Below, piece by piece: positions 6,373 to 63,895 of a stretch of 64,000 nucleotides of DNA. The position numbers and the translations under genes were made by a program. The stretch spans positions 46,031 to 110,030 of the forward strand of contig CAYQDR010000003.1 of NCBI GenBank assembly GCA_964416315.1. Reading direction: 5' to 3'. The notes under the pieces are model-generated. The model did not search any database and was not told the origin of the DNA. It saw nothing but the letters and a program-made list of their open reading frames with translations. Every line of letters begins with the position of its first letter. The stretch's first letter is position 1. The DNA is from an uncultured bacterium (GTDB taxonomy: Bacteria; Methylomirabilota; Methylomirabilia; Rokubacteriales; DASRDR01).

Positions 6373-7001
6373 TGCGCCGGGGCCTCCCTGCCCTCCTCCT
6401 CGCGCTGGCGCTCGGTCCCGGCGCAGCCGTCGCGGCCGCGGAGACGGTGCCCTCGCCCGAGGAGCGGCAGCGTCTCACGCGGGGCGAGGTGGTCTTCCGC
6501 GCGGGCGCCGCGCCCCGCAACGGCGCCGTGGTCCCCGGCGCGCGGGGTGGCGTGGCCTTCGTCCGGGTCCCGACGGGGCCGGAGCCGATCTGGACGATCC
6601 TGACCATGCCGCGGCGCTACCCCGAGATTTTCTCGGGCCTCCGGACGGTGGGGGTGCTCGAGGAGCAGTCGGGGATGTGGCTGCTCCGGACCGACGGCAA
6701 GTTCGGCCCGTTCACCTTCCGCTACCACACCCGCTACGAGATCCGCGCCGACGCGCGCACGACCACGTGGCGCCTGGACCCCACGCGGGAGAACGACGTC
6801 TTCGAGGACACCTGGGGCTCGTGGCAGCTCGTCGCCGAGGACGGCGCCACGCTGATCGTCTACGCGATCGGGTCGATCCCCTCGACCTGGCAGCCGCTGG
6901 CGGGGTACTTCGAGCGGCGCGGGATCATCGAGGCGCTCGGCGCGCTGCGGGAGGCCGCGATCCGCCGGGGGGCATCGCCGGACGGGCCGGCCCAGCCGTG
7001 A
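6372..7001 (+). CDS. secreted SRPBCC (START/polyketide-cyclase-like) protein
   Basis: Signal peptide MRRGLPALLLALALGPGAAVAAA. ATGA overlap with the upstream stop. Confidence 0.55.
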   Translation: MRRGLPALLLALALGPGAAVAAAETVPSPEERQRLTRGEVVFRAGAAPRNGAVVPGARGGVAFVRVPTGPEPIWTILTMPRRYPEIFSGLRTVGVLEEQSGMWLLRTDGKFGPFTFRYHTRYEIRADARTTTWRLDPTRENDVFEDTWGSWQLVAEDGATLIVYAIGSIPSTWQPLAGYFERRGIIEALGALREAAIRRGASPDGPAQP

Positions 7002-7702
7002 TCAGCGTCGTCATCCCCGCGCGAAACGAGGCGATGTGCCTCGGCGAGACGCTCACCCACCTGGCGGCGTGCACGCCGCCGGGCGCGGGCGAGGTCATCG
7101 TGGCGGTCGGCGGCTCGACGGACGGCACGGCCGCGATCGCGCGCCGCCGGGCGCGCCTGATCCTCGCCAGCGACGCGAGCCGCGCCGGGCTCCTCAACGC
7201 CGGGGCCCGCGCCGCCCGGGGCGCCGCCCTCCTGTTCCTGCACGCCGACACGCTGCCGCCGGCGGACTACGTGGCCGCGATCGACGCCACCCTCGGCGAC
7301 CCGGGGGTCGTCGGGGGCGCGTTCGATTTCGAGTTCCGCGAGGGCCGCCGGCAGCTCCGCGCGATCGCCGCCCTGAATCGCGTGCGCTGCCGCCTGACCG
7401 GCAACTTCTACGGCGACCAGGGCATCTTCGTGCGGCGCGAGGTGTTCGAGCGGATCGGCGGCTTCCCGCGACGGCGCCTCTTCGAGGACCTCGTCTTCTC
7501 CCAGGCGATGCGGCGGGAGGGGCGCACGGTCCTCCTGCGGGGCCGGCGCGTCCGGTCCTCCGGCCGCCGCTTCCTCCAGCCCGACTGGGCGCGCGCCGTG
7601 GCGCTGATCACCTGGCTCCTTCTGCTCCACACGCTCGGCCGCGACACCGAGGGCTACGCGGCCCGCTACCACGCGGCACGCGCCACCGGTGGGACGGGAT
7701 GA
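6998..7702 (+). CDS. family 2 glycosyltransferase (short TIGR04283-like type)
   Basis: VISVVIPARNE...GSTDGT...LHADT motifs. GTG start overlaps the upstream stop as GTGA. Confidence 0.7.
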   Translation: MISVVIPARNEAMCLGETLTHLAACTPPGAGEVIVAVGGSTDGTAAIARRRARLILASDASRAGLLNAGARAARGAALLFLHADTLPPADYVAAIDATLGDPGVVGGAFDFEFREGRRQLRAIAALNRVRCRLTGNFYGDQGIFVRREVFERIGGFPRRRLFEDLVFSQAMRREGRTVLLRGRRVRSSGRRFLQPDWARAVALITWLLLLHTLGRDTEGYAARYHAARATGGTG

Positions 7703-8999: not shown

Positions 9000-9142
9000 G
9001 GCCAGGCTGCCCACCGAGGATCGAGCCCCTCTCGGCTCACCCCGGGCCGTGATTTGGGTGTCGGAGCCGCGAGCTCGACCGCGATCGCCCGCAATTCCCA
9101 GAGTTGCGGAAGACGACTGAGAAACGGGCCCGGAGCCCGGGC

Positions 9143-10483
9143 CTACTCCCACATCGCGTCGAAGATGGAGCCGGCGAGCGTCGGGAAGACGTAGTGCATC
9201 GCGGCGAGATCCTGGCGCGTGAGCCCCCCGCGCATGGCGGCCGAAGCGACGTGGATCAGGTCCTCGGCCCCCGGACCGAGAATGTGGGCCCCAAGGAGCC
9301 GCCCGGTCGACGCCTCGGCCACCACCTTGACGAGGCCCTCGGTTTCCTCCCGCACCGCCGCCGCGGTGCTGTCCTCGAAGGGGACCCGGCTTACTGAGAC
9401 CTCGAGCCCCTGCCGCCGCGCCTCGGCCTCCGTGAGCCCGACCTGCCCGATCGCCGGGATCGTGAAGACGGCCGTGGGGAACCACCGGAGGTCCACCGCG
9501 CGCTGGTTGCCTCGGAGCGCGTTCTCCGCGACGAGGCGGCCCTCGTACCAGGCGACGGGGGTGTGCTGGTGCTGGCCCGTGACGTCGCCCGCGGCGTACA
9601 CATGCGCGGCCGTGGGTGACTGGCGGAACTCGTTGACCTTCACCCCGCCCCGCTCCACCGCCACGCCGGCGGCCTCGAGGCCGAGGCCGGCGGTGTTCGG
9701 GGGGCGGCCGGTCGCCACCAGGACGACGTCGCCCGGGAACCGCTCGGCGCGCCCCCCGACCTCCGCCTCGACCGTGCGGTCGGCGCCGATCCGCGTGACG
9801 CGCGCCCCCGTCCGGACCTCGAGCCCGGCGTCCCGGGCGATCGCGAGCAGCGCCTCGCGGATCTCGTCGTCCAGGGCCGGCAGGACGTGCGGCCCCGACT
9901 GGAGCACGGTGACGCGCGTCCCGGCCCGCGCAAAGGCGAAGCCGAGCTCCATCCCGATGTAGCCGCCGCCGACCACCACCATCCGCGCCGGCAGGGTGGC
10001 GTGGTCGAGCAACTCGTCGCTCGTCATGGCGTGCTCGATCCCGGGGATCGGCGGCCGGGCCGGGGAGGAGCCGGTCGCGATGATGACGCGCTCGGCCGTG
10101 ACCCGGCGCCCGGCGACGTCGAGCTCGCGCGGCCCGCGGAACGTCGCGCGGCCGCGGAGAACCGCGATCCCCTGCCGCTCGAAGCCCGTGTCCTTCCCGG
10201 CCGACCACTCCGCCACCAGGCGGTTCTTCCGCGCGATGATGGCACCCCAATCGAGCCCCAGCCCCGCCGTCCCCGTCACGCCCAGCCCGGCCGCGCGGCG
10301 CGCCCGCCAGGCCAGCTCCACGGTGCTGACCAGCACCTTTTTCGGGATTCAGCCGCGCCCGAGGCAGGTTCCCGCGAAGCCGTCCGCCTCCACGAGCGCC
10401 GTCCGGGCGCCGAGCCCGACGGCCGTCCGGGCGGCGAAGCCCCCCGCCGTTCCCGCGCCGATCACCAGGAGATCGTAGTCCAC
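9143..10483 (-). CDS. MerA-like flavoprotein disulfide reductase; in-frame TGA (10351-10349) at the second active-site Cys, candidate selenoprotein
   Basis: MDYDLLVIGAGTAGG FAD-binding fold. Active site GTCLGRG-[TGA]-IPKK where the family has CxxxxC. Blocks IIATGSSPARPPIPGI, LVATGRPPNT and VYAAGD resemble MerA-core blocks as recalled. Strong SD GGAGAGGAGG 5 nt before GTG 10483. The ORF track shows only the post-TGA part, 9143-10336. Confidence 0.7.
10322..10337 (-). ncRNA. SECIS-like stem-loop GGUGCU-GGUC-AGCACC, 11 nt downstream of the UGA at 10351
   Basis: Perfect 6-bp stem with GGUC loop. Spacing and loop match the E. coli fdhF SECIS apical hairpin as I recall it. Confidence 0.55.
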
Positions 10484-10523
10484 ACGGACCTCCTCTCCGC
10501 GAGTGACCCCGACTGCCGTCCTC

Positions 10524-10706
10524 TCAGCCTCGTCCCTCCACGGGCACGAGGGCCCAGGCGCCGAACTCGTAGGTGACGCGCTGCCGCACTCCGTGGCACT
10601 CGATCAGGTCACCGGGCCGCACGTCGTCCGGCAGATGCACGACGTGCTCCCCCACCGCACAGCTCGCCGTCTTGACCGGGCTGACCGTCCACACGCCGTC
10701 CGTCAC
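10524..10706 (-). CDS. hypothetical 60-aa protein between the redoxin and reductase genes
   Basis: ORF MTDGVWTVSPVKTASCAVGEHVVHLPDDVRPGDLIECHGV... No family recognised. Could be a small beta-barrel protein or non-coding. Confidence 0.3.
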   Translation of the reverse strand: MTDGVWTVSPVKTASCAVGEHVVHLPDDVRPGDLIECHGVRQRVTYEFGAWALVPVEGRG

Positions 10707-10824
10707 GCTCGCCCGGAGCGTGAGCCCGGCTCAGTTGGGTCAGTCGAAGACCCCGCCGTTGGCGATCCCGTCCGGGATCGCGATCTGCTGGCCTCAGCCC
10801 GGGCACCAGGCGGTCGGCATCCGC

Positions 10825-11061
10825 CTACGCGAGCCCGAGCAGCCGCTCGAGCCTGCCCCGGTCGAAGCCCACCACGGCCTCGCCGTCGATGACGGTGACC
10901 GGCGTGGCGCGGTAACCGAGCGCCTGGAGCTCCGCCAGGGCGGCTGGGTCCTGACGGATGTTCCGGTCGGTGAACACGACGCCTTTCTGAGAAAGAAACT
11001 CTTTCTCCGCCTGGCAGGCCCCTCAGCCAGGCTGCGTGTAGACGACGACCGACTTGGCCAT
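10825..11061 (-). CDS. NrdH/glutaredoxin-like redoxin with UxxC motif (TGA at 11025-11023), candidate selenoprotein
   Basis: MAKSVVVYTQPG-[TGA]-GACQAEKEFL..TPVTVIDGE..VGF is the NrdH/Grx fold with the first Cys of CxxC replaced by TGA. SD GGAGGG before ATG 11061. Hairpin GAGAAAG-AGUUU-CUUUCUC at 10989-11007, 15 nt after the UGA. Confidence 0.65.
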
Positions 11062-11227
11062 CACGCCCTCCGTTCGCTCACGCGGCGTTCCCCGCCAGGA
11101 GGCCGCCGAAGATCCGGCGGCCGAGCTTGAACGCTTCGCCCACCGTGGCGCCGGCCCCGGGCACGTCGGGGTGCGCGTCGTGCCAGGCCCGCAGGTGCTC
11201 TTCCGACCGGAAGAAGTTGAGCGTCGT

Positions 11228-11758
11228 TCAGAGCGAGGTGAAAACCTTCCGGTCGATCTCCCCCCGCTTCCCGACCCAGACCATGACCCCGTCGGCACCC
11301 GGACCCGGTCCCTCCGCGTCGGCCTCGAACTCGAGGGGCCCCCCGCAGTGGTGGCAGCGCGAGCGGATCTCCATGCACTGGCCCAGCATCGCCGCCACTC
11401 CGAGCGCGTCGATGGCGCAGCACGCGTACCGGCGCCGGCCGCCCGGGAGCACCACCGCGAACGCCGTCGGCACGGCGGCGAAGGGGTAGGCGAGCTCCAC
11501 CCGCCCCTCGCGGACAAGGATCAGGTCCCGCTCGTCCAGGCCCGCGACCTCCTCCAGCAGGCCATCGCGGGGTCGATCCGGAAACCAGGCCACGATCTCA
11601 TCGATCGGGATCGCTCCCTCCCGCTCGACAAACCGCCGGAGGATGCGCTGGAAGACCGCGTCCAGGCGCTCGGCCCGGCGGGTGGCCCAGCGCGCCTCGA
11701 GCTCCGGATCTACCAGCTCCTCGGCGGTCTTGATCTCCAGCGCCACCCGAGGCCTCAT
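11228..11758 (-). CDS. MerB-family (organomercurial lyase-like) paralogue
   Basis: YACCAIDALG and SRCHHCGG align with the MerB WCAxDTL and CxHxHFF catalytic regions. ATG 11758 directly abuts the merE stop. Confidence 0.6.
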   Translation of the reverse strand: MRPRVALEIKTAEELVDPELEARWATRRAERLDAVFQRILRRFVEREGAIPIDEIVAWFPDRPRDGLLEEVAGLDERDLILVREGRVELAYPFAAVPTAFAVVLPGGRRRYACCAIDALGVAAMLGQCMEIRSRCHHCGGPLEFEADAEGPGPGADGVMVWVGKRGEIDRKVFTSL

Positions 11759-12075
11759 GCGGCTGGACGGGGGGAGCCGCCCACCCCATTGGATTCGGCG
11801 ACCGGGGGCCGCGATTCGCCCGCCGTCCGGGGCGTCCCGCGGTCCGGCTCCCCCCAGGCCCGCAACCCGCGGAGCAGCGAGCCGGCGAAGACGACCGTCA
11901 TGACCGCGAAGGCCGCCGCCGCGTGCTCCCGGAGGACGGCGGCCAGGGCCGTGCCGCCCAACAGGGCGAGCGCCAGCGGAAGGTGGCACGGGCACGTGAC
12001 GGCGGCCACCCCGAGCAGGAGGTACGCCTTCCGTGGCCGCCCCGCCTCCGGTACGCCCCGGGTCATCGCCCGCAT
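11755..12075 (-). CDS. merE: MerE-like mercury transporter
   Basis: LLGVAAVTCPCHLPLALALLGGTALAAV matches the MerE LTCPCHLP transmembrane signature as recalled. Alternative ATG at 12066. Confidence 0.65.
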   Translation of the reverse strand: MRAMTRGVPEAGRPRKAYLLLGVAAVTCPCHLPLALALLGGTALAAVLREHAAAAFAVMTVVFAGSLLRGLRAWGEPDRGTPRTAGESRPPVAESNGVGGSPRPAA

Positions 12076-12082
12076 CGCACGC

Positions 12083-12724
12083 TCACGAACCCGGCAGCCG
12101 CCGCGCTTTGAAGCCCGCCGCTGCGATCGCCTCGACCATGCGCTCGATGGTAACCGAGGCGGGGTCGTACGTCACCCACGCCTTCGCCTGCTCGAAGCTC
12201 ACCTCGGCGTGCTGGATGCCCGGGAGCCCTGCCAGGGCTCGCTCGACCACGGTGGGTCAGGACCCTCAGGTCATCCCGTCCACCTGCAGGATCACGCGCG
12301 CCGCGACGACCGCGCCATGGCCGCCGGACGGACTCGGCCCGGTCCCCGCCTCGTGCTCCATCGCCGCGATTCCGCCCCACGACGCGATGAGCCGTGCCGT
12401 TCGGTCAGGGAACGCCGTCAGGACGACGGCAGCGGCGAGCACAACCGTCGAGATCCCCAGGAGCACTCCGTTGACACGGCCGCCGGCCATGGCGCATCCG
12501 AGCCGCTGGCAGCGCCGCCGTTCCCGCAGGTGGAGGTACCAGCCGAGGCCCGTCCCGAGGACCCCCGCGGGGATGAAGACGTACGTGTACCGCATCGTCA
12601 CCGCCATGAATGCCCCACTCCCCAGGCCGAGCACGACGACCGCGAGGGGGAAGAGGCAGCAGAGCGAGGCAACCGACGCGGACGCCATCGCCACGATGCT
12701 CGACCTCACGTCTGCGAGCTTCAC
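12083..12724 (-). CDS. MerT-like membrane protein fused to a MerP-like HMA domain; metal-binding motif reads GMT-[TGA]-GS-[TGA]
   Basis: TM1 with vicinal CC (ASLCCLFPLAVVVLGLG), loop Cys pair CQRLGC, third TM, then an HMA fold ILQVDGMT-U-GS-U-PTVVERALAGLPGIQHAEVSF..AWVTYDP..IERMVEAIAAAGF. TGA codons at 12268-12266 and 12259-12257. Hairpin GAGCCC-UGGCA-GGGCUC at 12224-12240. Start GTG 12724 overlaps the anti-sigma stop. Confidence 0.6.
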
Positions 12725-13368
12725 GGCCGCACCTGGTCCACCGTCGCGAGGCGTGCGAGCCAGAGGCCGGCGAAGGCCCAGAGCACCGCCCCGAGCCCCA
12801 GCCCCGAGACGAAGGCCACCTGGAGGGTGGGCGCGAACTCGCGGCACTGGATGATCACGTAGGGCGCCAGAATCCCGAGGAACAGCACGCCCGCTTCGAC
12901 CGCCCGGACCGCGGTCCCGTGCCGCAACAGCCACACGCCCAGCGCGACCGGTATCCCGTACGCAGCCCCGGCGACGAGATACGGCAGCGCATCGACGTCG
13001 GACCCCTGGAGCGCCTGCCGACACCAGGCGACCAGGAGGGGATACGGCACGAGCAGCGACAGCACGAGCGAAGCCGCGATCCCGATCAAGGCAGCCTGGG
13101 CGGCTGCGGCCCACCCGCGAAGCGCCAGGACGGACTCCCGGAGGGCGCGGCGGCGTACCTCGCGCAGCACCCGGGTCCTCACCGCGGCCGGGGGCGGCGC
13201 CGCCCCAGGCCAGCGGTCCAGGAGCGCCCAGGTCCCCCGGAGCGCCTCCAGCTCGGCGCGGCAATCCGCGCACGTCTCGAGATGCGACGCCACGTCCCCG
13301 GCCGGGGAGTCCTCCGCACCCCCAAGGCCGACGTCAAGCAGCCGGTCCCTGACCCCATCGCACTCCAT
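12721..13368 (-). CDS. membrane-bound ZAS-type (zinc-binding) anti-sigma factor
   Basis: C3...H29-x3-C33-x2-C36 ZAS motif (MECDG...SHLETCADC) followed by several transmembrane helices. Confidence 0.65.
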   Translation of the reverse strand: MECDGVRDRLLDVGLGGAEDSPAGDVASHLETCADCRAELEALRGTWALLDRWPGAAPPPAAVRTRVLREVRRRALRESVLALRGWAAAAQAALIGIAASLVLSLLVPYPLLVAWCRQALQGSDVDALPYLVAGAAYGIPVALGVWLLRHGTAVRAVEAGVLFLGILAPYVIIQCREFAPTLQVAFVSGLGLGAVLWAFAGLWLARLATVDQVRP

Positions 13369-13411
13369 GGCACGCCCCTCTGCCCTGGGAAACGAAAGGC
13401 GACGCGCTCCG

Positions 13412-13963
13412 TTACAGCTCGCCGAGCAGATCGCGGAGCCGGCGAAGGGCCCGGTGGAGGGTGACCCGCACCGCGCCCGGGGACGCCCCGATGATCTCCG
13501 CGACCTCCTCGGCGCTCAATCCGCCGAACCGGCAGAGGAGGACGACCTCGCGGTGGGAGGGGGGAAGCTCCAGCATCGCCGCCTGGAATCGCTCGCTGAG
13601 CTCGCCCGCCTCGGCCCGCTCCAGCGGCGTCGCGCTCGGATCGGCCAGCGTCTCGGCGAGCTCGCCGCCCTCCAGCACTCGCGCTCCGCTCCGTCGCCGG
13701 AACTCGTCCACGACCAGGTTTCGGGCGATGGTGAAGAGCCAGGTCCTGAACGCGGCGCTGGGACGCCAGCCCTCGCGGTGTGCGAACACCCGGAGAAACG
13801 TCTCCTGGAGGAGGTCCTCCGCCTTCCGCCGCTCGCCGAGGGACCGGAGCAGGAAGGTGAACACCCTTCGATGGTGCCGGTCGTAGAGCGCCTCGAAGGC
13901 TGTCGGGCTCCCCGCCCGCACCTCGTCCATGAGCACTTCGTCCGAGCGAGTCTCGCGCGGCAT
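13412..13963 (-). CDS. ECF-type RNA polymerase sigma-70 factor
   Basis: Sigma-70 region 2 and region 4 (FLLRSLGERRKAEDLLQETFLRVF ... LSAEEVAEIIGASPGAVRVTLHRALRRL). Start ATG at M17 of the listed ORF. Confidence 0.8.
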   Translation of the reverse strand: MPRETRSDEVLMDEVRAGSPTAFEALYDRHHRRVFTFLLRSLGERRKAEDLLQETFLRVFAHREGWRPSAAFRTWLFTIARNLVVDEFRRRSGARVLEGGELAETLADPSATPLERAEAGELSERFQAAMLELPPSHREVVLLCRFGGLSAEEVAEIIGASPGAVRVTLHRALRRLRDLLGEL

Positions 13964-14102
13964 GGCGAATCGGGGCGAAACGTCTTGAGTATACGCAGCG
14001 GCCAACCCCACGTCCGCGGGCGGAGATCGTCGCCGAGAATCCCTGGGCGCCCCGGACCCCTCAGAAGGCGTGAAGGGCAGACAGGACGAAGGAGGTCACG
14101 TC

Positions 14103-14765
14103 ATGAGCAACGTCCGCGCAGCCGAAGCCGTGTGGAAGCTGACCAGCGACGGGAGCGTGCTGGACTACGGACCGGATCTCTCGCACCTGCTCGTCCGCGT
14201 CATGCGGGCGCTCGCCCGGGGCCGTCCGGTCGCTGCCCGGGAAGCGGATCGCATCCGCGCCGCCCTCGGCATCACTCGAGACGAGGCGGAGCGCTTCCTG
14301 AGCGGGGTAGCCGAGCGGAACGCCGACGGTGACGTCGTCGGGATCCTCGGGCTGACGCTGACCGAGACGCGTCACCGCTTCGCCGTCAACGGCGCGAGGA
14401 TGTCCACGTGGTGCGCCGAGGACACGTTGTTCCTGCCCGCCATACTGAACGAGACGGCCACAGTCGAGTCCACGTCCCCGGTCAGCAGCCAAACGATCCG
14501 GCTGACCGTGAGCCCGGACGGAGTGGAGGAGGTCAGCCCGGCCAGCGCGGTCGTCTCGCTGGTCGTCGTCGAGCCGGATCGGGCGGACATGAGCTCGGTC
14601 GAGGCGATCTGGACCACGTTCTGCCACCACATCCACTACTTCGCATCGACGGAGGAAGCCGAGCAGTGGGCCGGCGGCAGGGACGACATCGAAATCGTCC
14701 CGGTCCACGAGGCGTTCGAGCTCGGCCGGCGGGTCTCGTCGAGGTTTCTCGCCTACGCGGAGTGA
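14103..14765 (+). CDS. merB: organomercurial lyase MerB
   Basis: TWCAEDTLFLPAIL (Cys/Asp), FCHHIHYFAS (Cys) and VPVHEAFELG match canonical MerB. SD AGGAGG 7 nt before ATG 14103. Divergent from the sigma factor gene. Confidence 0.8.
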   Translation: MSNVRAAEAVWKLTSDGSVLDYGPDLSHLLVRVMRALARGRPVAAREADRIRAALGITRDEAERFLSGVAERNADGDVVGILGLTLTETRHRFAVNGARMSTWCAEDTLFLPAILNETATVESTSPVSSQTIRLTVSPDGVEEVSPASAVVSLVVVEPDRADMSSVEAIWTTFCHHIHYFASTEEAEQWAGGRDDIEIVPVHEAFELGRRVSSRFLAYAE

Positions 14766-28691: not shown

Positions 28692-30347
28692 TCAGATGAG
28701 CCCAGTGATGGTGCCGGCCGCGTCGACGTCGATCCGCTCGGCGTTCGGCGAGCGCGGGAGGCCCGGCATCGTCATGATCTCGCCCGTGATCGGCACGAGG
28801 AACCCCGCCCCGGCCGAGATCCGCACTTCGCTCACGGTCACCGCGAAGTCCCGCGGCCGGCCGAGGAGCGCCGGGTCGTCCGAGAGCGAGCGCTGGGTCT
28901 TCGCCATGCAGATCGGCAGCCCCGCGTACCCGAGCGCCTCGGCCTGGGCGATCTGCGCCTCGGCGCGCTTCGTGTAGACGACCCGCTCGGCCCCGTACAT
29001 CCGCGTCGCGATCGTCTCGATCTTCGCCCGGATCGGCGCTGCCCAGTCGTAGAGCGGCCGGAAGCGCGCGGGCTCGCGCGCGAGGAGATCCACGAGCGCG
29101 GCAGCCAGGCCCTCGCCCCCCGCGCCGCCCTGCCGGAAGACGTCGGCGACCTCCGCGCGGACGCCCAGGCCCGCGCAGTGCTCGGTGATCGCGGCCAACT
29201 CGGCATCCGTGTCGGAGGGGAAGCGGTTCAGCGCGACCACCAGCGGCACGCCGAAGAGTCGGATGTCCTCGACGTGCTGCTCGAGGTTCGCGATCCCGCG
29301 CTTGATCGCCGGGAGATCCTCCTGGTCCACCCCGCTCATGGGCACGCCGCCGTGGTACTTGAGCGCGCGCGCCGTGGCGACCAGCACGACGGCGTCGGGG
29401 GCGAGACCCGCGTAGCCGCACTTGATGTCGAAGAACTTCTCGGCCCCGAGGTCGAAGCCGAACCCTGCTTCCGTCACGCAGATCTCGCCGAGCTTGAGGG
29501 CGAGCTTGGTGGCGACGACCGAGTTGCAGCCGTGCGCGATGTTCGCGAAGGGCCCGCCGTGGATCAGCGCCGGCGTGCCCTCGAGCGTCTGGACGAGGTT
29601 TGGGTGGATCGCGTCGCGGAGGAGCGCCGCCATCGCGCCGGTGACCTTCAGGTCCGCCGCGTGGACGGGGCGGCCGTCGAAGGTGAAGGCGAGCAGGATC
29701 CGACCCAGGCGCGCCTTGAGATCCGTCAAGTTCTCGGCCAGGCAGAGGAGGGCCATGACCTCCGAGGCGGCCGTGATGAGGAAGCCCTCTTCCCGGGGAT
29801 AGCCCTGGAGGCGGCCCCCCAGCCCCAGCACGGTCTGGCGGAGCGCCCGGTCGTTCATGTCGAGCGCCCGCCGGAAGAGGATCTGCCGCGGGTCGATCCG
29901 GAGCAGGTTGTCGTGGAAGAGGTGGTTGTCGAGGCACGCCGCGAGGAGGTTGTGGGCACTCGAGACGGCGTGGAGATCGCCCGTGAAGTGGAGGTTGATC
30001 TCGTCGGCGGGGACCACCTGGGCGCGGCCGCCGCCAGTCCCGCCCCCCTTGACGCCGAGGCAGGGGCCGATCGAGGGCTCGCGGAGGGCGACCACGGCGC
30101 GCCGCCCGACGCGGGCGAGGGCCTGGCCGAGGCCGATCGTCACGGTGGTCTTGCCGTCCCCGGGCGGCGTCGGCGTGATCGAGGAGACCACGACGAGCTT
30201 CCCGTTCGGGCGGTCGCGCCGCGTCTCCAGCACCCGCAGGTGAACCTTGGCCTTGGCGTGGCCGTAGGGGATGAGGTCGGCGTCGCCGAGGCCGAGGCCG
30301 GCCGCGACCTCGCCGATCGATCGGATCGTGGACACCCGCGCGCTCAC
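28692..30347 (-). CDS. fhs: formate--tetrahydrofolate ligase
   Basis: TPTPPGDGKTTVTIGL (PTPAGEGKTT signature) and full-length FTHFS homology. GTG start at 30347 chosen by N-terminal alignment to known Fhs proteins. The rest of the 671-aa ORF overlaps arsC in another frame. Confidence 0.85.
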   Translation of the reverse strand: MSARVSTIRSIGEVAAGLGLGDADLIPYGHAKAKVHLRVLETRRDRPNGKLVVVSSITPTPPGDGKTTVTIGLGQALARVGRRAVVALREPSIGPCLGVKGGGTGGGRAQVVPADEINLHFTGDLHAVSSAHNLLAACLDNHLFHDNLLRIDPRQILFRRALDMNDRALRQTVLGLGGRLQGYPREEGFLITAASEVMALLCLAENLTDLKARLGRILLAFTFDGRPVHAADLKVTGAMAALLRDAIHPNLVQTLEGTPALIHGGPFANIAHGCNSVVATKLALKLGEICVTEAGFGFDLGAEKFFDIKCGYAGLAPDAVVLVATARALKYHGGVPMSGVDQEDLPAIKRGIANLEQHVEDIRLFGVPLVVALNRFPSDTDAELAAITEHCAGLGVRAEVADVFRQGGAGGEGLAAALVDLLAREPARFRPLYDWAAPIRAKIETIATRMYGAERVVYTKRAEAQIAQAEALGYAGLPICMAKTQRSLSDDPALLGRPRDFAVTVSEVRISAGAGFLVPITGEIMTMPGLPRSPNAERIDVDAAGTITGLI

Positions 30348-30691
30348 GAGAGCCCACCCAGCGCGCGCCGATAGAGCTCCTCGGTGAAGCCCCGCACGAG
30401 GAGCCCGCCGTCCACGAGGACCGGTACCCGCATCCAGCCGTCCTCGTGGATCAAGTACGTCGCCACCTCCTGGTCCGTCATCGCGCCCCCCTCCGCCGAG
30501 AAGTGCAGGATCTCCTGCCCCGCCTTGACCCAGAGCTCCCGCGCCGCCCAGGCCAGCGCCAGCGTCACCGCGCGCCCGACCGGCCGCTCCTCGACGTAGC
30601 GGTTCTCGAACGCGATGCCGTGAGCCGAGAGGAACCCTCTCGCGCCGGTGCAGGTCGGTCAGTTGTGGCGGTTGTAGAGGATCGCGGTCAT
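30344..30691 (-). CDS. ArsC/Spx-family protein with catalytic Cys replaced by in-frame TGA (30661-30659), candidate selenoprotein
   Basis: MTAILYNRHN-[TGA]-PTCTGARGFL...MRVPVLVDGGLLVRGFTEELY aligns with the ArsC/Spx fold (IYHNPAC / NCDT region, C-terminal RPIVV.DG...GF). Hairpin CGAGAGG-AAC-CCUCUCG at 30626-30642, 16 nt after the UGA. Stop overlaps the fhs GTG as GTGA. Confidence 0.6.
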
Positions 30692-30734
30692 TCCGGTCCC
30701 CCCTCACCCCAGCCCCCTATCAAGACAGCCTGTC

Positions 30735-42251: not shown

Positions 42252-42638
42252 TCAGGATCCAGGCCGCGCCCCCGTCTCGACGGGTGCGGGCGGCTGGGCG
42301 GCGGGGTGCAGGACCCCAATCGCCCAGTCGAGGTCGAGGCGCTCGCCGAGCCAGCTCGGGCACCCCGTCCGCGCGTCGATCGCGAGCCCGCGCGCCCGGT
42401 GGGTCGCAACCAGCGCGTCGGTCGGGTCGCCCGGGACCGCCGGCGCCCGCGGGACTGCGGGAATCGGCCGGCCGTCCGGCGTGGCGAAGCGAAGCGTGCC
42501 GTCGCCGTCGCGCGTGACCTGGTAGCCCTCCTCGTGGACGGCCCGGTGATGGCGCCGGCAGAGCAGGGCGAGGTTCTCGAGCCGGGTCGGCCCGCCGTTC
42601 GCCCAGTGGTGGAGGTGATGCCCCTGGGCGTGGCGCAC
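42252..42638 (-). CDS. HNH endonuclease domain protein, possibly a fragment of a DUF222-type gene
   Basis: HHLHHWANGGPTRLENLALLCRRHHRAVHE HNH motif. Only the C-terminal region of typical DUF222/HNH proteins is present. Confidence 0.45.
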   Translation of the reverse strand: MRHAQGHHLHHWANGGPTRLENLALLCRRHHRAVHEEGYQVTRDGDGTLRFATPDGRPIPAVPRAPAVPGDPTDALVATHRARGLAIDARTGCPSWLGERLDLDWAIGVLHPAAQPPAPVETGARPGS

Positions 42639-42639
42639 G

Positions 42640-44500
42640 GCTTACCGATGATCTCTCGGCGTCAAGCATGCGCAGCGCCAGGATAGCGGACCGTGCCGAA
42701 CAACCGATGCAGCCCGAGCCCCCTCAGCCAGCCGAACGACCACCGGGAGATCGCCGCGTGCCGGTCCCGCAGACCGTGACGCCGGGCCAGAAACAGCCCG
42801 AGCCGTTGCCGCACGTAGTGATCGATCTGGTTGAACTTCAGGGTGGCATTCCCAGCCGCGCGATGACGACCCGCACGTCCTTCACCCCGCTGTGCCGCGC
42901 GTCCGTCAGCTCTCGAATGCGAGCCCCGAAGCCGCTTCATGCTCCTCGGCGACGGCCATCGCTGCAAAAACATCCGGCCGGGATACCGCACCGACCGGCA
43001 CTTCTTCAGCCGACATCCGAGGAACTCGAAGCCCTCCTGCCCGCCCCCGAGCGCCACCAGCCGCGTCTTCTCCGGATGCGCCTCCAATCAGCCCCACCCG
43101 CCTGAGCGCCTCCCGCGCCTGCCCCTCGGTGCGACAGAGCACCACGAGATCGTCGGCGTAGCGAACCAACACGCCGAGCCCCGCGCACCGCTGCTGCCAG
43201 ATCCGATCGAGCCCATGCCGGGAGATGTTCGAGAGCAGCGGCGAGATTACCCCACCCTGCGGCGTCCCCACCACCGTCGCCTCTCGACGCCCTTCCTCCA
43301 GCACCCCGGCCTTCAGCCATCGCCGGATCAGCTTCAGCACCCGCCGGTCCGACACCCGCCGCCCCACTTCCCCCATCAGCCGGTCGTGGTCGATGCGGCC
43401 GAAGTAGTCCTGAATGTCGACCTCTACCACATGATCGTGCCCCTGGTTCGCTGTGACCCGAATGGTCTCCAGCGCCTCCGTGGCGCTTCGCTTCGGCCGG
43501 AACCCGTAGGACACCGGCAGAAAATCGGCCTCGAAGAGCGGCTCGATCACCAGCTTGGTCGCCATCTGCACGACCCGGTCCCGGACTGTCGGAATGCCCA
43601 ACGGCCGTCGCCGTCCATCCGCCTTCGGGATGTACCGCCGCTCCACCGGTGCCGGTCGGTACCGCCCAGCCTTGAGGTCGGCCTGGATCTCGTGAAGAAA
43701 CCCCTCGACCCCCCGCTGCTCAATGGCCGCGATCGTCTCGCCGTCCACCCCCGCAGCGCCCCGATTCGCTCGCACCCCGCGCCACGCTTCCCACAGGACG
43801 TCACTCCTGTAGATCCGGTCGTACAGCGCGTGGAACCGCCGCCCCCGACTCCGCTTGGCCGCACGCCACAGCGCCCGCTGGAGTTCTCGCACTTTGCCGT
43901 CCGGGTCGTTGGAGCTTGCGCTCATGCCCTCGCGCTTACCCCCAGGCGGACGCATGACCAAAGCAGGGGCCCTTCCCTCCAGGCGATTGTCTCGCCCTTC
44001 CCCGGTACTCCGACCCCCTCGGACGCCCTCCCGACGCCCCGCCGTTTCGGACTCGCCTTATCGACGTGGCCGTGCTCTGACTTGAGCCGTCGGGGAGGGC
44101 CTCTCCAGTTCCGCACCGGGCCATGGACACGTGCCGCTCCCCGTACCCCGGAGGGGTCCAGCGCCGCGCCGATCCTTACGCGCTGTCTGTGGCCTTCGCC
44201 GTGACATGCCCGGCTCGGCCCCCTCTGCCTTTCGGCTGATAATCTGACGAGGCGGCAGGATTCACGTGATGTTGCGGCCCGCGCCCTCGCTCCCTCCGTA
44301 GAGGCTCTTGACGCCCTGCTCAGCGTCGAGGCTCTCACCTCGCCGCCAGGGCCTGCTACTGAGCGCATCGGCGCTTACTCAGGCGGGACTTCCACCCGCA
44401 GGTCCGGTGCAGCTTGGCTGGACGCAGCACGGGAACAGCATACCACTCGCTCCCCTGGACTGGACCCCAAGGGCGCCGTCCGTGGGTGATCCAGGATCCG
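42640..44500 (-). mobile_element. group II intron (boundaries approximate) with degenerate intron-encoded protein
   Basis: Intron-encoded protein has RT motifs [30 protein letters not shown] and YADDLVV. The maturase/X domain [11 protein letters not shown]...NQIDHYVRQRL continues in a different frame. About 550 nt of non-coding 5' sequence fits domains I-III. Confidence 0.55.
42662..43925 (-). pseudogene. group II intron RT/maturase with frameshift between RT and X domains
   Basis: RT domain in frame of ORF 42906-43961 (start ATG 43925). X domain in frame of ORF 42662-43087. Confidence 0.55.
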
Positions 44501-54752: not shown

Positions 54753-54880
54753 GCAACCGGTCCGAGCCCGCGAGATTCCGACCGCCCTCGGCAAGCCCAT
54801 CGGGACCTACCGGGGCGCGGCGCCCGGCTTCTTGGCGAGACAGTTTGACAAAGTAACCACCGGTGACTACAATGCCGCCG

Positions 54881-55186
54881 ATGGCCAAGGCCGTTGGAGT
54901 CAGGCAGCTCAAGGCGCGGCTCTCCGAGTACCTCCGCCTGGTGCGGGCCGGGGAGACCGTGCTCGTGACCGACCGCGACGAGGTGATCGCCGAGTTGCGG
55001 CCCGCACGGCGTCAGGGGCGCCCGCTCGATGCGCTCGAGGAGATCCTCGACACCCTGGCGGACGCCGGTGAGGTCACGCGGGCGAGCCTCCCCAAGGGTG
55101 GCTGGACCTGGAAGGTCCCCGGGCTCGGGCTCGCGCCGGGCACGGCGCGCGTGCTGATCGACGAGTTGAGGGCCGAGCGGGGGTGA
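54881..55186 (+). CDS. vapB: VapB/Phd-type antitoxin
   Basis: LKARLSEYLRLVRAGETVLVTDRDEVIAEL matches the Phd/YefM-type antitoxin. Overlaps the PIN gene start. Confidence 0.6.
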   Translation: MAKAVGVRQLKARLSEYLRLVRAGETVLVTDRDEVIAELRPARRQGRPLDALEEILDTLADAGEVTRASLPKGGWTWKVPGLGLAPGTARVLIDELRAERG

Positions 55187-55602
55187 GCGCGGCGGCCGGC
55201 AGCCTGTACCTCGATACCTCCGCCGTCCTTCGGGCCGTGCTCGAGAGCGGCACGACCCCGGAGGTCGAAGCCCGCGTCCGGGACGCCCCCGTGCTGATCA
55301 CCTCGCGCCTGGCCCTGGTGGAATCGGCACGCGCCCTCCACCGGTTGCGGCTCGGGGGGCGCGTCCCTGAGGCGCGGCTCGCGGATGCCGAGCAGGCCCT
55401 AGCGGCGGTGTGGGCGCGCTGTGAGCTGTGGGAGCTGACGCCGGCCGTCTGCGAGACGGCCCGCCACGTGGCCCCCGGCATCCCGCTGCGCACACTCGAC
55501 GCCCTCCACCTCGCGACGTACCTGCTGGCGCGGCGCCGCATCGAGGCGCTCGAGCTACTCACCGTCGACGACCGTCTCAGAGCTGCAGTCCAAGGCGCCT
55601 GA
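55183..55602 (+). CDS. vapC: VapC PIN-domain toxin
   Basis: LYLDTSAV N-terminal Asp, PIN acidic residues and a C-terminal DxxL block. Confidence 0.7.
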   Translation: MSAAAGSLYLDTSAVLRAVLESGTTPEVEARVRDAPVLITSRLALVESARALHRLRLGGRVPEARLADAEQALAAVWARCELWELTPAVCETARHVAPGIPLRTLDALHLATYLLARRRIEALELLTVDDRLRAAVQGA

Positions 55603-63221: not shown

Positions 63222-63608
63222 CTACAGCCCGTAGGCGGGGATCCGCAACGCGTGCGCCGCGGCGAGCAAGCGATCGTCGTAGCTCGCCAGCGTCACAGCC
63301 TGGCCGTGGGCTCGCAGGAACTCCATCGACGCCAGGTGCAGCGCGTCGAGCGTCCGCACCGGAGCGGGGAAGGGTTCCAGGGCCCGGGCCAGTACCGGCG
63401 GGGCCAACTCGAGGAGGGCGATGCGACCCACGAGTGCCCGGACGTGGTCGCCATGCGACGGGCCGAGCCGGCGCGCATGAATCCGCGTCCAGATCTCGCA
63501 CTCGAGCAGCCGGCTCGAGATCAGCGACTCCTGCCAGAGTCGCTCGGGCGGCGCCTGGTCCTCGGCGAGCAGTTGAGCCAGCGCGACCGAGGTGTCGAGG
63601 TAGATCAC
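63222..63608 (-). CDS. vapC: VapC PIN-domain toxin
   Basis: MIYLDTSVALAQ..., conserved PIN acidic residues. Confidence 0.7.
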   Translation of the reverse strand: MIYLDTSVALAQLLAEDQAPPERLWQESLISSRLLECEIWTRIHARRLGPSHGDHVRALVGRIALLELAPPVLARALEPFPAPVRTLDALHLASMEFLRAHGQAVTLASYDDRLLAAAHALRIPAYGL

Positions 63609-63895
63609 CGCCCGTTCCGGTCTTCCCGCAACTCGGCGAGCAGCTCGGCCAACGGCGCGACGGGTGCCCGCGGCGGTGCCCCGGCCACGGGCAGGACCGG
63701 GGGAACGACCCAGCCGTGGCGGACCGCCTCCGCCAGGAGCGCGTCGGCCAGCAGGACGCTCCGCCCTGCCCGAGGGGGCACCAACTCGGCCACCACGCGG
63801 TCCCGGTCCGTGACGAGGACGGTCTCCCCGCCCGCCGCGAGCCGGACGTACTCGCTCAGCCTGTTCTTGAGGACCTTCAGCCCGACGGCCCGCAC
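63605..63895 (-). CDS. vapB: VapB/Phd-type antitoxin
   Basis: LKNRLSEYVRLAAGGETVLVTDRDRVVAEL. Paralogue of the antitoxin at 54881-55186. Confidence 0.65.
   Translation of the reverse strand: MRAVGLKVLKNRLSEYVRLAAGGETVLVTDRDRVVAELVPPRAGRSVLLADALLAEAVRHGWVVPPVLPVAGAPPRAPVAPLAELLAELREDRNGR

Follow-up and report, generated by a model that had tools for sequence, protein, structure and literature searches.

Predicted selenocysteine at metal-ligand and redox cysteine positions in a mercury-resistance-type operon of Candidatus Rokubacteria

Introduction

Why would a gene cluster of the mercury-resistance (mer) type carry in-frame TGA codons at the very positions where its proteins are expected to hold metal-ligand or redox cysteines? 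The question is raised by eight tightly spaced genes that run on the minus strand from position 13963 to position 9143 of a 64-kb stretch of DNA of ~72% G+C (contig CAYQDR010000003.1; hereafter the window, meaning the whole stretch analysed), with a canonical merB gene diverging from them on the plus strand. The cluster is a chromosomal locus of the mercury-resistance type in a genome of Candidatus Rokubacteria (Methylomirabilota). Its genes encode, in order, an extracytoplasmic function (ECF) sigma factor, a zinc-binding anti-sigma (ZAS) factor, a MerT-like transporter fused to an HMA domain (MerT-HMA), MerE, a MerB-like protein, a glutaredoxin-like protein (hereafter the redoxin), a small Cys/His protein and a flavoprotein disulfide reductase (FDR).

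An earlier reading of the bare DNA (hereafter the original prediction) had proposed this gene order, save for the small Cys/His protein, and the divergent canonical merB, and Pfam and NCBIfam profile matches bear both out. It had also placed TGA codons at expected Cys positions in three proteins. The positions hold, whereas the count has to be raised to four proteins and five TGAs, the one in the MerB-like gene having been missed. The recoding that it proposed within a mer-like operon is strongly supported by comparison and extends to a fourth protein, while the role in handling Hg or organomercurials is a matter of inference. We conclude from comparative sequence analysis that the five UGA codons are very probably recoded as selenocysteine (Sec, U).

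In-frame TGA codons at conserved cysteine positions

Each of the five in-frame TGAs in the four genes falls on a metal-ligand or redox Cys. Translated through the stops, the reductase reads GTCLGRG*IPKK, the redoxin TQPG*GAC and the HMA domain DGMT*GS*. Codons at the corresponding columns were read from tblastn alignments of the window proteins against all fetched related loci (numbered with the prefix L), and these alignments pass through the TGAs in more than 60 loci. The reductase TGA (10349..10351; this and all other operon features are on the minus strand) occupies the second Cys of CxxxxC and is found in all Sec-type relatives, with TGC or TGT in MerA-type proteins. The redoxin TGA (11023..11025), at the first Cys of CxxC, recurs in 19 of 20 related hits and is replaced by TGC or TGT in none, the twentieth hit being a second, overlapping alignment in L030. 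The TGA of the MerB-like gene (11228..11230) stands at the position of MerB Cys159, and this codon is TGA in 63, TGC in 8 and TGT in 3 of 74 loci. Finally, the first and second Cys of GMTCxxC in the HMA domain are both TGA (12266..12268 and 12257..12259, respectively); among related loci the former is TGA in 10 and TGC or TGT in 5, and the latter TGA in 12 and TGY in 3, the motif having the CxxU form in L030 and L034.

Cys (TGC/TGT) occupies all five TGA columns in Cys-containing forms, and TGA recurs in related loci with Cys codons in outgroups, a covariation that the original prediction had named as a check. In the case of the MerB-like gene, the Cys forms belong mostly to Rhodobacteraceae, Actinomycetes and Acidobacteria outgroups. 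With Cys put in place of the stops, Pfam domains continue through every TGA: Pyr_redox_2 and Pyr_redox_dim span residues 3-440 of the reductase, Glutaredoxin residues 5-63 of the redoxin and HMA residues 134-194 of the fused transporter, and the match to the MerB profile is complete (positions 1-126 of 126).

The same codons leave their imprint on protein databases. The best 120 database hits of the reductase (71-92% identity), several of which are named Candidatus Rokubacteria, all begin just past the TGA and are 380-401 aa long, nearly all of them 391-401. Among the best 120 hits of the MerB-like protein, 100 are ~172 aa long and end at the TGA, and 20 are full length; of the 12 full-length hits that were aligned, 11 have Cys and one has Ser in the TGA column. 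When one genome of each species was scanned, 66 MerB-like loci came back, almost all of them from Rokubacteria/Methylomirabilota. To judge from these comparisons, the recurrence of TGA in dozens of species-level genomes is not a matter of chance.

TGA codons would also come to lie within genes if the operon were decaying through nonsense mutations, if the sequence or its assembly were in error, or if TGA had been reassigned genome-wide. Such explanations gain something from the fact that TGC or TGT becomes TGA by a single-base change, that gene callers split all four genes, and that a handful of FDR copies in related loci seem split or frameshifted (L084, L086 and L104, the last with a broken hairpin stem as well), defects that may be assembly errors or occasional decay. 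Against them, the locus is present in three assemblies (L001-L003; two from JGI metagenome samples, one from ENA), all with TGA at each of the five positions and with the four genes split by gene callers; as L001 and L002 may be one sample assembled twice (the ENA assembly possibly being a re-assembly), they count as two or three separate assemblies. Furthermore, the five TGAs fall on functional Cys positions only, in the same columns across dozens of species, and the hairpins described below covary. The original prediction had named decay of the interrupted genes as evidence that would tell against it; the coding sequence past the TGA is intact and conserved across dozens of species. TGA also still functions as a stop codon, as that prediction had stated: it ends 30 of the 50 open reading frames (ORFs) in the window that are supported by third-position G+C (GC3), including the anti-sigma gene and the canonical merB, and it terminates merE, the MerT-HMA gene and the MerB-like gene themselves. 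Since TGA is the normal stop for most ORFs of the window, genome-wide reassignment is excluded, and we regard decay, error and reassignment, taken together, as scarcely credible. A scan of the window for TGA-interrupted genes returned only the reductase and MerB-like sites; it requires 30 or more codons to either side of the TGA, so that other short-flank cases in the window would escape it, just as the redoxin and HMA sites did.

SECIS-like hairpins

Bacterial selenocysteine insertion sequence (SECIS) elements conform to a consensus in which ~16-37 nt separate the UGA from the loop and a G occurs early in the apical loop. Every TGA site of the operon is followed, 11-16 nt downstream, by a short stem-loop with a G-rich apical loop. 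The reductase hairpin, GGUGCU-GGUC-AGCACC (10322..10337), lies 11 nt past the TGA. That of the MerB-like gene, UUCUUCC-GGUC-GGAAGAG (11198..11215; core UCUUCC-GGUC-GGAAGA), lies 12-13 nt past it. The redoxin hairpin, GAGAAAGA-GUU-UCUUUCUC (10989..11007), is found 15 nt past its TGA and is unusually A/U-rich for a genome of 72% G+C. The HMA hairpin, GAGCCCU-GGC-AGGGCUC (12224..12240), lies 16 nt past the second and 25 nt past the first TGA, and this one hairpin would serve both UGAs. The original prediction had pointed to the hairpins after the reductase, redoxin and second HMA TGAs, which are confirmed at 11, 15 and 16 nt, respectively. The loops GGUC, GGUC, GUU and GGC begin 17-23 nt past the nearest UGA, and from their sequences both the distances and the loops appear to fit the bacterial consensus.

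Comparative analysis argues that these structures are maintained. In the reductase hairpin, 97.2% of the cells of the alignment are paired across 24 distinct sequences, 3 of the 6 pairs change on both sides, and the stem occurs in three perfectly complementary classes (GGUGCU/AGCACC, GGCCUU/AAGGCC and GGCCCU/AGGGCC). A metagenome scan that specified the TGA and the loop pattern and left the stem free gave 49 matches, all 49 at the reductase U-IPKK site and with the reading frame continuing downstream, apart from the few split or frameshifted copies mentioned above. The redoxin hairpin is paired in 95% of cells over 15 sequences, its pair 20-36 being CG in 11 and AU in 4, and the HMA hairpin in 98.2% of cells over 8 distinct sequences, with 3 of 7 pairs changing on both sides. 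The stem of the MerB-like hairpin is invariant; here it is the synonymous sites that are frozen, 51 distinct genes of the Sec form having CGG for Arg in 51/51, TCG for Ser in 49/49 and GAA for Glu in 45/51, compared with a codon entropy of 1.7-1.9 bits at other Arg columns that are likewise invariant. The hairpins are absent or degraded in Cys forms, and pairing is lost in several MerB-like Cys forms.

Because the TGAs recur, the same columns hold Cys in outgroups, the hairpins are conserved and TGA still stops other genes, recoding as Sec is the reading that we adopt. Two sets of negative results weigh against it. First, the folding of the sequence past the TGAs that the original prediction had proposed as a check yielded no significant signal: the fold energy of the 70 nt past each TGA is no better than that of shuffled sequences (z -0.75 to +0.62), in a test that is uninformative in DNA of 72% G+C and in place of which the comparative analysis was used. 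Rfam returned no SECIS or other family in the operon region at E up to 5, its only match in the whole window being a group II intron. Second, neither the window nor the 1.3 Mb of related loci yielded selA, selB, selD or tRNA-Sec, an amount of sequence too small for a true negative. More specifically, the 64-kb window holds no tRNA of any kind, 54 related loci hold no tRNA-Sec, no SelA, SelB or SelD domain occurs among the ten largest unassigned ORFs of the window, and tblastn of E. coli SelA, SelB and SelD against the 1.3 Mb of related loci gave no match.

Selenoproteins are reportedly plentiful in the phylum. A Methylomirabilota metagenome-assembled genome with 63 predicted selenoprotein genes is cited by a 2026 review (PMC13188914), and Sec-type hydrogenases have been reported from Methylomirabilota (PMC13582414). 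Among the related loci, L007 carries an AhpD/CMD-like gene (6508-7308, minus strand) with an in-frame TGA (NVCEY*IVAH, i.e., CxxU), adjoining a MerR-type regulator. CxxU AhpD-like proteins are a known selenoprotein type, and this predicted member shows that the L007 genome uses Sec elsewhere. The same locus holds a DUF3179 gene (1835-2932), from a family with known Sec forms.

The UGAs could in principle be read through the SECIS/SelB route as Cys, at least in part, by the non-canonical tRNA-ReC, in which case the products would be plain Cys proteins whose expression is gated by recoding. tRNA-ReC-like genes are reported as significantly enriched in genomes with UxxU-type hydrogenases (PMC13582414), and the operon does have a UxxU motif. 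Against this, no such tRNA occurs in the window or in related loci, although their coverage is tiny, and the long upkeep of TGA and hairpin in many species would be hard to explain if Cys codons sufficed. We therefore consider reading as Cys very unlikely.

The flavoprotein disulfide reductase

The last gene of the operon (9143..10483) encodes a class-I flavoprotein disulfide reductase (Pfam Pyr_redox_2 and Pyr_redox_dim) with the predicted redox centre C-LGRG-U, Sec replacing the second Cys. In glutathione reductase, lipoamide dehydrogenase and MerA, this second Cys of CxxxxC is the flavin-proximal charge-transfer thiol. Among solved structures a MerA is the closest (5x1y, E 6e-81), and glutathione reductase and lipoamide dehydrogenase rank behind it. 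Identity with MerA, as implied by the label "MerA-like reductase" of the original prediction, was nonetheless rejected. The TIGR02053 score (352.8 bits) is below the cut-off of 454 and about equal to that for lipoamide dehydrogenase (349.5). Moreover, Tn501 MerA has a C-terminal vicinal Cys pair and an N-terminal HMA domain, whereas the window protein starts at the FAD-binding fold, with no N-terminal HMA domain, and ends in ...GSIFDAMWE without a Cys pair. What stands of the label is the FAD-adjacent CxxxxC motif, in the form C-LGRG-U; the MerA hallmarks and the MerA score do not.

The C-terminal region is unusual in another respect. At window positions 9146-9200, the clade of the window reductase reads MHYVFPTLAGS where relatives have the HP(T/S)xSE acid-base dyad. 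This loss of the catalytic His and Glu is confined to the Sec clade of the window, and Cys-type as well as other Sec-type relatives keep the dyad. When representatives of 50%-identity clusters were searched with a 397-aa reductase fragment as the query, the nearest ones (33-45% identity) likewise began just past the active site; the CxxxxU reductases are therefore, judging from these predicted truncations, a diverse group. Some of the relatives that start after the active site (P0245-P0247, P0266 and P0248) have CCG or CC tails recalling MerA or high-Mr thioredoxin reductase, and one of them, P0248, begins with MNTGCIPTK and may be a UxxxxC variant with Sec at the first Cys.

The MerB-like lyase and the canonical MerB

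The MerB-like gene (11078..11758) encodes a putative lyase whose Pfam MerB match (PF03243; 95.9 bits, cut-off 27) extends through the TGA. Its Cys114, Asp117 and Sec177 align with Cys96, Asp99 and Cys159 of MerB, the residue roles of which are described by Haft and Gwadz (bioRxiv 10.1101/2022.07.06.499078). No variation occurs at C114 and D117, column 177 holds either Sec or Cys, and the canonical MerB encoded nearby has the Cys of TFCHHIHYF opposite the TGA. The AlphaFold model of a Cys-form homologue (P0123; 59% identical, pLDDT 85.9) matches only MerB and MerB2 crystal structures, with TM scores of 0.65-0.75. By profile, catalytic triad and fold, the last as predicted for this homologue, the protein is a member of the MerB family.

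The family also has a specific C-x-H-C motif (residues 135-138; window 11335-11356), in which C135, H137 and C138 are invariant and which canonical MerB lacks. From its sequence, this motif could be a second metal-binding or hand-off site.

SaoL is a MerB-like selenoprotein encoded by the selenocysteine-assisted organometallic (SAO) locus of Clostridioides difficile and other anaerobes (10.1101/2022.07.06.499078). Identity of the window protein with SaoL was rejected: the SaoL profile (NF040728) gives 59 bits against a cut-off of 140 and covers residues 39-145 only, and the protein has S-L-U-T-T instead of a C-U dipeptide, its Cys forms having S-I/L-C. None of the nine-gene SAO neighbours sought (the ABC importer SaoPABX, the efflux pump SaoE, SaoC and SaoT) is among the genes called within 10 kb.

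The canonical, Cys-type merB (14103..14765, plus strand) has WCAED and FCHH motifs and scores 106.6 bits with Pfam MerB and 189.9 bits with NCBIfam MerB (cut-off 193). Annotated plasmid merB genes share 38% identity with it over 95% of its length.

The redoxin and the small Cys/His protein

The redoxin (10825..11061) is a glutaredoxin-like protein of the YruB/NrdH-like kind with the predicted active site U-G-A-C (Pfam Glutaredoxin PF00462, 53.9 bits, cut-off 22.9). Among NCBIfam profiles, YruB (68.9 bits) and Uxx-star (55.6) match, and YruB, NrdH and Uxx-star are all under their cut-offs. The original prediction of an NrdH-like redoxin with Sec at the first Cys is thus retained except for the name, the best score being that of a YruB-type glutaredoxin-like protein.

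The small protein of 60 aa encoded downstream (10524..10706) is rich in Cys and His and weakly resembles a LysW-type zinc ribbon (LysW domain, E 2.7e-4); a 102-aa homologue in L007 matches the NCBIfam LysW domain with an E value of 1.7e-14. Its gene adjoins that of the Sec-type redoxin (hereafter Grx(U)) in more than 12 loci. An extended start through a TGA was considered for this ORF and rejected, as the upstream frame holds several stops.

The MerT-HMA fusion and MerE

The gene at 12083..12688 encodes a MerT-like, three-helix transporter with a C-terminal, MerP-like HMA domain (Pfam HMA, 59.8 bits) that carries the predicted motif GMT-U-GS-U. The MerT-like part has a CC pair in helix 1 (SLCCLFP) and a CQRLGC loop, both read from the sequence. 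From the charge distribution, the HMA domain, which follows the third MerT-like helix, should face outwards. Scored with C for U, the fused domain reaches 92.3 bits with UxxU_metal_bind (NF041115; cut-off 95). The NCBIfam MerTP_fusion profile gives 74.8 bits (cut-off 180), and that of the MerT/CopZ fusion-like selenoprotein (NF045683) 34.8 bits (cut-off 375), through the HMA part only. In L007, the UxxU domain is a separate protein, the N-terminal hydrophobic stretch of which reads as a signal peptide.

MerE (11755..12075) is a MerE-like small membrane protein with a CPC motif (TCPCHLP). It scores 41.6 bits with Pfam MerE (PF05052; cut-off 22.8) and 59 bits with the NCBIfam profile (cut-off 80), and the TGA stop of its gene overlaps the ATG of the MerB-like gene.

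Regulation and transcription of the operon

The first gene of the operon (13412..13963) encodes an ECF sigma factor (Pfam Sigma70_r2, Sigma70_r4_2 and Sigma70_ECF) and the second (12721..13368) a membrane anti-sigma factor with the ZAS motif Cys3 ... H29-x3-C33-x2-C36. This motif was read from the sequence, DVASHLETCADC; NCBIfam anti-sigma matches are weak. Anti-sigma and sigma factor are conserved together in L030, L085 and L111, and a sigma gene followed by an anti-sigma gene also lies upstream of the Sec-type MerB-like gene (hereafter MerB-like(U)) in further Rokubacteria loci.

The eight genes apparently form one transcript that starts at the ECF sigma/ZAS anti-sigma pair. The promoter scan found no sigma-70 promoter, as is expected of an ECF-driven operon. 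Directly after the reductase stop, a G+C-rich, 7-bp hairpin followed by GUUUCUC (9127..9143) is a weak candidate for the operon terminator; the consensus terminator scan did not flag it. The sole "intrinsic terminator" of that scan (10322-10337, plus strand) was rejected as an artefact, being the reverse complement of the reductase SECIS hairpin plus TTTTT.

Related loci and the mercury question

The core module MerB-like(U)-Grx(U)-small zinc-ribbon (ZnR) protein-MerT-MerP(UxxU) recurs in L006/L007, L016 and L023, and parts of it are found in L012, L015, L017, L043 and L067, on shorter contigs or with a Cys-type MerB-like gene. In L006/L007 the module is divergent from a MerR-type regulator (in L007, TIGR02051 132 bits, cut-off 151). 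The fuller set of the window, including the reductase, occurs in shuffled order and with all five TGAs in L013, and partially, again shuffled, in L030, L056, L085, L087, L108 and L111; for instance, the order is Grx-ZnR-FDR-sigma-anti-sigma-MerE in L085 and canonical MerB-Grx-ZnR-FDR in L087. In L010, a true MerA (TIGR02053 560 bits, cut-off 454) is followed by a Cys-type MerB-like gene, and a CxxxxU reductase adjoins them.

Several features of the operon speak for mercury, namely a MerE above the Pfam cut-off, the GMTxxxx motif of the HMA domain, both Cys pairs of the MerT-like part, the canonical merB next door and a MerB-like family with the fold and catalytic triad of MerB. In related loci, the true MerA of L010, the MerR-type regulator of L006/L007 and the shuffled recurrence of the gene set point the same way. 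Other features weigh against mercury. The MerT-like part scores under the curated cut-offs, both with Pfam PF02411 (17.7 bits, cut-off 32.9) and with NCBIfam NF010314 (23.4, cut-off 150). The reductase fails the MerA tests, and in roughly three quarters of cases its close relatives are encoded singly and at a distance from mer-type genes. No MerR is encoded in the window, where the regulator is instead the ECF sigma factor with its anti-sigma factor. Finally, MerB-like(U) is near-universal in Rokubacteria and often solitary, most of its carriers lacking transport genes, a distribution more in keeping with a housekeeping role than with mercury resistance of the classical, mobile type. The frequent solitary occurrence of the MerB-like(U) and reductase genes across the lineage points to a chromosomal function common to it. 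From homology and gene neighbourhood, we would put the chances that mercury or an organomercurial is the substrate at about even.

The same recoding could serve another purpose, that is, a sigma/ZAS-controlled defence against general thiol- or selenol-reactive stress. The targets would then be Cu(I), Ag, Cd, Au, organometal(loid)s, or disulfide or electrophile stress; the reductase and the glutaredoxin-like protein would form a Sec-dependent disulfide-reducing couple, and the MerB-like protein would act on another substrate. An ECF sigma factor paired with a ZAS anti-sigma factor is the architecture of thiol-stress regulons, SigR-RsrA being an example. The reductase stands no closer to MerA than to lipoamide dehydrogenase or glutathione reductase, falls under every cut-off and is often encoded alone, and the near-universal MerB-like(U) gene adjoins, in some clades, a gene for 3-mercaptopyruvate sulfurtransferase. 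Haft and Gwadz (10.1101/2022.07.06.499078) also argue that the Sec-bearing SaoL need not act on mercury. Such a defence does not readily account for five mer-type families (MerT-like, MerP-like HMA, MerE, MerB-like and canonical MerB) being together in one place, nor for the true MerA and the MerR-type regulator that accompany such genes in L010 and L007, respectively, and we consider it unlikely.

One Rokubacteria clade deserves separate mention. It has a conserved arrangement of genes for an ECF sigma factor, a 545-aa ZAS anti-sigma factor and MerB-like(U), to which L045 (5798-9615), examined gene by gene, adds a 3-mercaptopyruvate sulfurtransferase; L035, L037, L041, L046, L053, L055, L060, L064 and L065 are similar.

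A proposed mechanism for the operon

The explanation that we favour for the locus in its entirety, and hold to be probable, is that of a Sec-recoded, mercury-type operon. Selenolates bind Hg(II) more tightly than thiolates. The extracytoplasmic U-x-x-U HMA domain would capture Hg(II) or RHg+ and hand it on to the MerT-like channel with which it is fused, where the Cys pairs would receive it; MerE would provide a second entry route. Carbon-mercury bonds would be cleaved in the cytoplasm by two enzymes, the canonical MerB and the MerB-like lyase with its Cys114/Asp117/Sec177. The selenol of the UxxC redoxin, together with the small Cys/His protein, would then strip the tightly bound metal from the lyase by ligand exchange, and the NAD(P)H-dependent C-x4-U flavoprotein would either re-reduce the selenenylsulfide of the redoxin or reduce the bound metal. 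The anti-sigma factor, rich in thiols, would respond to this soft electrophile by freeing the sigma factor.

In its most ambitious form, this proposal holds that the CxxxxU reductase and the non-SaoL Sec-MerB-like protein, both core to Rokubacteria, constitute with the UxxC redoxin and the UxxU periplasmic binder a complete, selenolate-based pathway for the uptake and detoxification of Hg and organomercurials. We advance this version tentatively and with some doubt.

If the recoding is genuine, a Cys-x4-Sec pair beside FAD would represent new selenoenzyme chemistry, with a selenenylsulfide replacing the classic redox disulfide. A selenolate mer-type system would also tie selenium supply to the turnover of mercury and methylmercury in an abundant, uncultured phylum of soil and groundwater, and would open the antagonism of selenium and mercury, noted long ago, to tests at the molecular level.

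Other features of the window

Elsewhere in the window, the minus strand holds a group II intron (42252-44401). It matches Rfam RF02003 (group-II-D1D4-4; 44267-44401, 90.5 bits) and includes an ORF for a reverse transcriptase/maturase in which YADD occurs (42906-43961), together with a second, HNH-like ORF (42252-42638). At 54863-55602 and at 63222-63895, small ORFs overlap in pairs that resemble antitoxin/PIN-toxin modules, the second member of each putative pair having an N-terminal ...YLDTS... motif, as read from the sequence. A formate-tetrahydrofolate ligase gene (28692-30707, minus strand; Pfam FTHFS, 818 bits) lies ~18 kb from the operon.

Comparison with known systems

Sec forms of mer-type proteins are not new as a concept. 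The statement of the original prediction that no characterised example was known to it proved too strong, given that predicted Sec-containing MerT, UxxU HMA, MerT/CopZ fusion and glutaredoxin proteins, as well as SaoL, are on record. By comparison with a 2026 inventory of 119 prokaryotic selenoprotein families, in which no class-I CxxxxU FDR is listed and SaoL is the sole MerB-like entry, what has no entry is the CxxxxU FDR and the non-SaoL clade of Sec-containing MerB-like proteins. A full-text literature search for Sec-containing mercuric reductase gave nothing further; Deng et al. 2026 and Haft and Tolstoy 2025, which lie outside this comparison, might list such families. The database entries of both families are truncated, a sign that they still escape annotation pipelines. 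Should the recoding hold, hundreds of truncated entries named "NAD(P)/FAD-dependent oxidoreductase" and "alkylmercury lyase" would in fact be full-length selenoproteins.

Four groups of known systems invite comparison. First, the MerB-like protein shares with SaoL a Sec at the position of MerB Cys159, the retained equivalents of Cys96 and Asp99, the truncation of database entries at the TGA and the presence of neighbouring selenoproteins, including a thioredoxin-fold UxxC protein. It differs from SaoL in having L-U instead of C-U and an additional CxHC motif, and in its occurrence in Rokubacteria beside mer-type transport genes and a sigma/anti-sigma pair, whereas SaoL belongs to a nine-gene SAO locus with an ABC importer and an efflux pump. 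Second, known FAD/NAD(P)H oxidoreductases that bear Sec have it in the redox centre, as does the window reductase, in which, unlike in those enzymes, Sec is the second Cys of an N-terminal CxxxxC.

Third, predicted selenoprotein forms of mercury-type transporters are already on record: Sec-containing MerT (PF02411, with C/SxxU or CU) is one, and the MerT/CopZ fusion NF045683 another. In the UxxU metal-binding protein NF041115 (Olavius symbiont, listed as "putative mercuric reductase"), an HMA fold has both ligand Cys replaced by Sec, just as is predicted for the operon. The window protein differs from both Sec-MerT and NF041115 in that its UxxU domain is fused after MerT-like helix 3 and the Cys pairs of its MerT part remain Cys.

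Finally, the operon shares with the classical mer operon (merR-merTP(C)-merA-merB-merE, as in Tn21/Tn501) its MerT-like, MerP-like, MerE and MerB functions, a disulfide oxidoreductase and a canonical merB. It departs from that model in having an ECF sigma/ZAS pair in place of MerR, a reductase that lacks both NmerA and the C-terminal Cys pair, and Sec, as predicted, in place of five Cys. It further adds a glutaredoxin-like protein and a small Cys/His protein to the classical set, and it is a chromosomal, lineage-wide locus where the classical operon is transposon-borne.

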